Of a stretch of 64,000 nt of DNA, positions 50,293 through 50,922 are shown piece after piece. The notes under the pieces are model-generated. The model was not told where the DNA came from. It saw only the letters and a program-made list of their open reading frames with translations, and did no database searches. Positions within the stretch are counted from its first letter, which is position 1. Every line of letters begins with the position of its first letter. The position numbers and the translations under genes were made by a program. Source of the stretch: Escherichia coli (GTDB lineage Bacteria; Pseudomonadota; Gammaproteobacteria; Enterobacterales; Enterobacteriaceae); NCBI RefSeq assembly GCF_003334335.1, contig NZ_QOWQ01000022.1; one strand, 5' to 3'.

Positions 50293-50922
50293 ATGAAAAG
50301 CCTCTCCTATAAGCGGATCTATAAATCACAAGAATACCTGGCAACGTTGGGCACAATTGAATACCGATCATTGTTTGGTAGTTACAGCCTGACCGTTGAC
50401 GACACGGTGTTTGCGATGGTTTCTGATGGTGAGTTGTATCTTCGGGCTTGTGAGCAAAGTGCACAGTACTGTGTAAAACATCCGCCTGTCTGGCTGACAT
50501 ATAAAAAGTGTGGCCGATCCGTTACCCTCAATTACTATCGGGTTGATGAAAGTCTATGGCGAAATCAACTGAAGCTGGTGCGTCTGTCGAAATATTCTCT
50601 CGATGCAGCGCTGAAAGAGAAAAGCACGCGCAATACCCGGGAAAGACTGAAAGATTTGCCCAATATGTCTTTTCATCTGGAAGCGATTCTCGGGGAGGTG
50701 GGGATTAAGGATGTACGGGCGTTACGTATACTTGGGGCAAAAATGTGTTGGTTGCGACTGCGGCAGCAAAACAGTCTGGTGACAGAAAAGATTCTGTTTA
50801 TGCTTGAAGGTGCCATTATCGGCATTCATGAAGCTGCGCTCCCGGTGGCACGCCGCCAGGAGCTTGCAGAATGGGCTGACTCTCTTACGCCGAAACAGGA
50901 GTTTCCTGCGGAACTTGAGTAA
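50293..50922 (+). CDS. sxy: competence regulator Sxy/TfoX
   Basis: 209 aa ORF; 3' end overlaps convergent yccS. Confidence 0.92.
   Translation: MKSLSYKRIYKSQEYLATLGTIEYRSLFGSYSLTVDDTVFAMVSDGELYLRACEQSAQYCVKHPPVWLTYKKCGRSVTLNYYRVDESLWRNQLKLVRLSKYSLDAALKEKSTRNTRERLKDLPNMSFHLEAILGEVGIKDVRALRILGAKMCWLRLRQQNSLVTEKILFMLEGAIIGIHEAALPVARRQELAEWADSLTPKQEFPAELE

Follow-up and report, generated by a model that had tools for sequence, protein, structure and literature searches.

The window analysed here is a stretch of 64,000 nucleotides of Escherichia coli DNA (NCBI RefSeq assembly GCF_003334335.1, contig NZ_QOWQ01000022.1), in which ycbJ converges on elyC and sxy converges on yccS such that the 3' ends of the coding sequences (CDSs) overlap. 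The genes and the segments derived from them are listed below, numbered from the first letter of the window.

1404-2297, plus strand: ycbJ CDS, 297 aa, stop TGA at 2295-2297; NCBIfam NF007890 matched over residues 1-297
2274-3053, minus strand: elyC (ycbC) CDS, 259 aa, stop TGA at 2276-2274 (plus-strand tca); NCBIfam NF007794 matched over residues 1-259
2274-2297: overlap of the ycbJ and elyC CDSs, 24 bp, from the open reading frame (ORF) list and direct reading of the sequence
50293-50922, plus strand: sxy (tfoX) CDS, 209 aa, stop TAA at 50920-50922, from the ORF list and RefSeq annotation
50885-53047, minus strand: yccS CDS, 720 aa from the PGAP start, stop TAA at 50887-50885 (plus-strand tta), from the ORF list and RefSeq annotation
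50885-50922: overlap of the sxy and yccS CDSs, 38 bp, from the ORF list, direct reading of the sequence and K-12 mapping
50875-50929: interval of 55 bp from the last conserved Sxy codon (W194) to the conserved YccS codon Q706, containing both stops

The two overlaps had been reported in the initial annotation as 38 bp for sxy/yccS and 24 bp for ycbJ/elyC, and both values are exact to the base, as the ORF list, the sequence itself and the annotation of K-12 agree. In the RefSeq entry of K-12 MG1655 the same overlaps are formed by sxy (1021138-1021767) with yccS (1021730-1023883) and by ycbJ (971752-972645) with elyC (972622-973401), and mapping of the K-12 genes onto the window gave gaps of -38 and -24, respectively, confirming the stop positions. 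The initial annotation had made its reading depend on start positions that it had moved; this proviso proved irrelevant, because both overlaps are defined by stop codons alone and the start of yccS lies at the far end of that gene. The yccS start does differ between annotations, with K-12 using the ATG at 53038 (717 aa) and PGAP position 53047 (720 aa, MAFMLSP...), which leaves a yccF-yccS gap of 18 bp or 9 bp, respectively.

All four proteins were assigned to families. The matches of YcbJ to NF007890 and of ElyC to NF007794 were far above the cut-offs, as was the match of YccS residues 11-709 to NCBIfam TIGR01666, and in Sxy the Pfam domains TfoX_N (residues 14-106) and TfoX_C (residues 116-194) were identified. 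The 38-bp overlap encodes Sxy residues 198-209 and the stop on one strand, and part of the codon for YccS residue 709, residues 710-720 and the stop on the other, and the family models of both proteins end before it (TfoX_C at Sxy 194 and TIGR01666 at YccS 709), leaving the overlapping codons outside them. An alignment of 15 Sxy homologues showed that conservation ends at W194, beyond which both sequence and length vary (201 to 209 aa). The Sxy tail is predicted to be disordered: in the AlphaFold model, which is poor overall (mean pLDDT 59.6), the last helix ends at residue 198 and residues 203-209 are coil with pLDDT below 50.

The initial annotation had also proposed that the arrangement is conserved core architecture and not strain-specific, and this was borne out by a search of 5,426 complete E. 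coli genomes and by its extension across the Enterobacteriaceae. Both junction regions (0.8-1 kb) were present in all 5,426 genomes. Of the 91-bp sxy/yccS junction, 5,183 genomes carry an exact copy and a further 239 one of 95-99% identity; for the ycbJ/elyC junction, the corresponding numbers are 2,125 and 3,299. In a single genome, that of E. coli R9 (NZ_CP107164.1), the ycbJ/elyC match begins only at about position 2260 and only elyC is annotated beneath it, a pattern suggesting that ycbJ has been rearranged or interrupted by an insertion in its 3' end, immediately ahead of the overlap.

Beyond E. coli, the sxy/yccS junction was examined by a genome scan of 80 species of Enterobacteriaceae, whose relatedness means that the counts overstate the independent evidence. 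The spacing between the codons for Sxy W194 and YccS Q706 was 45-56 bp in 78 of the 80 species and exactly 55 bp in 47. The two CDSs overlap in 76 species, with 15 different lengths ranging from 4 to 80 bp and tracking genus, of which the following are examples.

E. coli and close clades: 38 bp
E. albertii: 41 bp
Two Salmonella subspecies: 14 and 23 bp
Citrobacter freundii group: 23 bp
Enterobacter and Lelliottia: 44 bp
Kosakonia: 7 bp
Buttiauxella: 4 bp
Trabulsiella: 80 bp

Close spacing was broken in two species, by a 249-bp gap in one and by two inserted genes in Superficieibacter. In Superficieibacter electus (contig L053, 3616-5901) the inserted genes lie on the minus strand between sxy and yccS and encode a 425-aa membrane protein and a 200-aa protein, which demonstrates that the junction can be split. 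As judged from these genomes, the close spacing of sxy and yccS is old, whereas their overlap is not fixed. Overlap length as a selected trait was ruled out by the occurrence of 15 lengths among the 80 species.

Column entropies were calculated for the 55-bp interval across the 47 species that share this spacing, giving 1.07, 1.17 and 1.12 bits at the three codon positions and no codon periodicity. In the flanking cores, the most variable codon positions (presumably the third) had entropies of 1.05 and 1.38 bits and the other two 0.03-0.45 bits. The entropy within the interval hardly differs by codon position and reaches the level of the most variable positions of the flanks, so that the interval evolves like unconstrained DNA that is translated on both strands by happenstance. 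On the same grounds, selection on both reading frames was ruled out for the sxy/yccS overlap.

The overlap to be expected at such spacing was estimated by shuffling the 55 bp between the real flanks in 20,000 trials, a null that keeps base composition only. The CDSs still overlapped in 81% of the trials; in 71% of them the overlap reached 38 bp or more, and its median length was 95 bp. The sxy/yccS overlap is thus what chance predicts at this spacing and lies on the short side of that expectation, and its shortness fits mild selection to hold each stop inside the unconstrained interval.

The ycbJ/elyC overlap is built differently. Positions 2274-2297 encode the conserved C-terminus of YcbJ (SLLPWLA and the stop), and the other strand encodes the tail of ElyC (SGEPRQE and the stop), the codon for ElyC Ser252 (2298-2300) lying just outside the 24 bp. 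YcbJ is 297 aa long in every close homologue and its C-terminal PWL motif is retained down to relatives at 32-39% identity. Conservation of ElyC stops at WQWLKG (G251), and the tail beyond, SSGEPRQE, is an antisense reading of the YcbJ C-terminus, so that a Trp codon of YcbJ (TGG), for instance, dictates a Pro codon (CCA) in ElyC. ElyC residues 251-259 are predicted to be disordered, being coil with pLDDT below 50 in the AlphaFold model. The true frame of elyC is the one that meets a stop earliest, after an overlap of 24 bp against 56 and 154 bp for the other two frames. Only the YcbJ frame of this overlap is conserved in distant relatives, and constraint on both frames was not found.

The cross-genus context of ycbJ/elyC was taken from seven look-ups, as against the 80-species scan for sxy/yccS. 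Overlaps of 21 bp were seen in Salmonella and in a Dryocola/Cedecea-like genome, and one of 24 bp in Enterobacter. Among more distant relatives, the two genes are separated by a gap of 30 bp in Plesiomonas shigelloides and of 107 bp in another, and elyC is absent in one. ElyC of Plesiomonas terminates two residues past LKG and has no counterpart of the E. coli tail. Because the distant relatives keep a gap and the Plesiomonas protein stops near LKG, the ycbJ/elyC overlap is a derived state that arose when the spacer was lost and ElyC became longer.

Taken together, both overlaps are very probably ordinary tail-to-tail overlaps, tolerated as a by-product of genome compaction, with no selected regulatory device involved. 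The spacer between each convergent pair would have been lost in the lineage leading to the Enterobacteriaceae, and each frame would then overrun the last residue under constraint, to be closed only by a stop located within the 3' end of its convergent partner. At sxy/yccS both overlapping tails are unconstrained, and at ycbJ/elyC a short lineage-specific ElyC tail is written antisense to the conserved C-terminus of YcbJ. Two points weigh against this by-product reading. The close spacing kept in nearly all species scanned could also reflect selection for overlapping transcription, and the overlaps are shorter than the shuffle median, which speaks for some selection, at least to keep the stops within the spacer.

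How the facing transcripts end was approached by scanning for intrinsic terminators, folding the junctions and consulting published maps of transcript ends. The initial annotation had stated that the overlaps leave no room for terminators, and this holds in that there is no intergenic space at all and that neither junction carries a hairpin resembling an intrinsic terminator above chance. Terminator scans near both junctions returned weak sites only, at the rate found in shuffled sequence, and 151-nt folds over the sxy/yccS junction, one for each strand, had z-scores of -0.72 and -0.95, i.e. no excess stability relative to shuffles. No Rfam family matched near either junction; the only matches in the window, both above the gathering score, were the PyrD leader at 33843-33916 (plus strand), upstream of pyrD, and the small RNA ES036 (CssrF) at 14047-14089 (plus strand), in the convergent spacer between gloC and aspC. 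Neither a 3' end nor a Rho region is recorded in the few hundred bases around either junction in the Term-seq and bicyclomycin data of Adams et al. (2021), although low expression could hide such sites. The same study reports a bicyclomycin-sensitive (Rho) region inside ycbJ, at K-12 position 972120 (about 1772 in the window, plus strand), approximately 370 nt from the ycbJ start, so that a fraction of the transcripts running into ycbJ may stop short of the overlap.

Since there is neither intergenic DNA nor an intrinsic terminator at the junctions, the transcripts must end within the opposing gene, where termination is plausibly Rho-dependent. The ratio of C to G in the transcripts was used as a heuristic for Rho loading, for which the 95th percentile of the window is 1.69, and the following candidate regions were obtained.

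50627-50824, minus strand: C-rich, G-poor tract in the yccS transcript (antisense to sxy), 61-258 nt past the stop, C/G up to 2.82, candidate Rho loading region
2156-2253, minus strand: C-rich tract in the elyC transcript (antisense to ycbJ), 21-118 nt past the stop, C/G 2.0, candidate Rho loading region

The C-rich tracts past the stops of the sxy and ycbJ transcripts are weaker or more distant. Termination would most likely occur via Rho once the ribosome leaves at the stop, possibly helped by head-on collisions of polymerases. Because each transcript ends inside the facing gene, the two mRNAs of a pair always share a complementary 3' end, and the facing transcripts may interfere with each other.

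The initial annotation had further suggested that the overlaps may couple the expression of the genes, and regulatory coupling of either pair is possible in view of this arrangement. In its strongest form, the pairs would be functional excludons, in which transcription of one gene represses the partner by polymerase collision or by RNase III cleavage of the duplex, such that, for example, transcription of yccFS would silence the competence regulator sxy. In Table 1 of ExcludonFinder (NAR 2025, PMC12288877), ycbJ-elyC and sxy-yccS are among the 165 convergent excludons that recur in 50% or more of 58 MG1655 transcriptomes, which places both pairs in the core E. coli "excludome". The sxy and yccFS operons were likewise found to converge by Conway et al. 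(2014), who reported overlapping 3' ends in 276 of 370 convergent operons, with a mean of 286 nt. The close juxtaposition of sxy and yccS in 78 of 80 species, and the fact that the yccS transcript must run antisense into sxy where a terminator was not found, also favour such a function. However, any expressed pair with overlapping CDSs scores as an excludon, since overlap of the transcripts follows from overlap of the CDSs whenever both genes are expressed, so that the listing adds no functional evidence. Neither the length nor the sequence of the overlap is conserved, chance alone predicts overlap at a 55-bp spacing, the sxy/yccS pair is interrupted by two genes in Superficieibacter and by 249 bp in another species, and no reciprocal expression data for sxy/yccS or ycbJ/elyC were found in the papers searched. 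A classical excludon, as in the Listeria paradigm, resembles these pairs, and those of the ExcludonFinder map of E. coli, in that the mRNAs necessarily share complementary 3' ends, but it has a long UTR that extends over the adjacent gene and has been shown to affect expression reciprocally, whereas in sxy/yccS and ycbJ/elyC the overlap lies in the CDS itself and the pairs are candidates. A functional excludon is therefore an unlikely account of either pair. The genomic comparison argues against selection on the overlap itself, given lengths of 4 to 80 bp by genus, a sxy/yccS sequence that evolves as if unconstrained and one natural split, and a variable, unconstrained overlap together with natural splits of the junction does not favour coupling of expression.

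A narrower form of the same idea, that yccFS read-through helps to silence the competence co-activator Sxy in the Enterobacteriaceae, with the reverse taking place on induction of sxy, and that the spacing is kept for this purpose, is less probable still.

In E. coli, convergent genes are commonly separated by bidirectional terminators, as is known from the SEnd-seq literature. This background, together with a hairpin seen in Plesiomonas, lends some appeal to a bidirectional intrinsic terminator embedded in the overlapping tails and ending both transcripts. In the Plesiomonas shigelloides-like contig L092 (2037-2066), the 30-bp gap between ycbJ and elyC contains a hairpin whose 11-bp stem (GGAATAACCGC...GCGGTTATTCC) is perfectly paired and takes in the ycbJ stop. 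The hairpin folds with -21.4 kcal/mol (z-score -2.25) and lacks a clear U tract; it may be a remnant or an equivalent of a shared terminator lost in the Enterobacteriaceae. For the E. coli junctions, however, an embedded terminator is very improbable and largely refuted by scans and folds at chance level: the scans remained at shuffle level both in and beside the two overlaps, the sxy/yccS folds behave like shuffles, the sequence of the sxy/yccS overlap is not conserved and no Term-seq 3' end is recorded at the junctions. That the overlaps are artefacts of annotation or sequencing, with the true protein ends separate, is refuted by the sequence and has next to no probability, for although Palleja et al. 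(2008) attributed 124 of 178 convergent overlaps of more than 60 bp to misannotation (3'-extension errors), both overlaps here are shorter than 60 bp and conserved in other genera, their stop codons are fixed by the sequence and 5,183 complete genomes, sequenced independently, carry the same 91-bp sxy/yccS junction, such that only recoding (e.g. frameshifting near the 3' ends) could alter the protein ends.

Both overlaps are ordinary, already annotated and already published. Both loci show facing 3' ends, reciprocal inclusion of the stops and conserved protein-coding genes with hundreds of homologues. They are like the convergent overlapping pairs surveyed previously (Rogozin et al., 2002, Palleja et al., 2008, Huvet and Stumpf, 2014) in lying on opposite strands with each stop inside the partner, in being short (below 60 bp), in arising from stop-codon movement or spacer loss and in being conserved among related species. 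Nothing essential sets them apart, save that 38 and 24 bp exceed the 4-bp overlaps found elsewhere in the window. A total of 75 convergent overlapping pairs has been described in E. coli (Huvet and Stumpf, 2014), and the convergent orientation tolerates longer overlaps (Palleja et al., 2008). Within the window, 4 of 10 convergent pairs overlap, the same count as in the matching stretch of K-12, namely ycbJ/elyC (24 bp), zapC/ycbX (4 bp), sxy/yccS (38 bp) and yccX/tusE (4 bp). The 4-bp overlaps of zapC (plus strand) with ycbX (minus strand) at 35634-35637 and of yccX (plus strand) with tusE (minus strand) at 59494-59497 consist of interlocking stops; these pairs are also convergent core genes with overlapping CDSs and no spacer, but they differ in that only the stops interlock and no sense codons are shared. 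Both are likewise listed by ExcludonFinder (NAR 2025, PMC12288877), where all four pairs of the window are adjacent in the table. The two longer overlaps show how spacer loss turns unconstrained protein tails into overlaps and add nothing new to this picture.

Their main value is practical, for the design of knock-outs, for genome recoding and for strand assignment in RNA-seq. A clean deletion that takes the shared bases also damages the neighbouring gene. The usual Keio design keeps only the last 21 nt of the deleted gene. Deletion of sxy or yccS by this design should thus alter the C-terminus of the partner. For the other pair, inactivation of elyC on deletion of ycbJ has been attributed to their overlap in a 2025 preprint. 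At 2274-2276, the bases that form the elyC stop on one strand are read as the ycbJ codon TCA on the other, which makes synonymous recoding on one gene alone impossible. In transcriptomics, reads near the 3' ends at both junctions need to be assigned by strand.

Elsewhere in the window, the fimbrial usher gene elfC (28867-30950) carries an internal deletion of approximately 505 bp relative to K-12, with a breakpoint near 30188. As the frame from the elfC start ends after 455 codons, elfC looks like a pseudogene in this strain.
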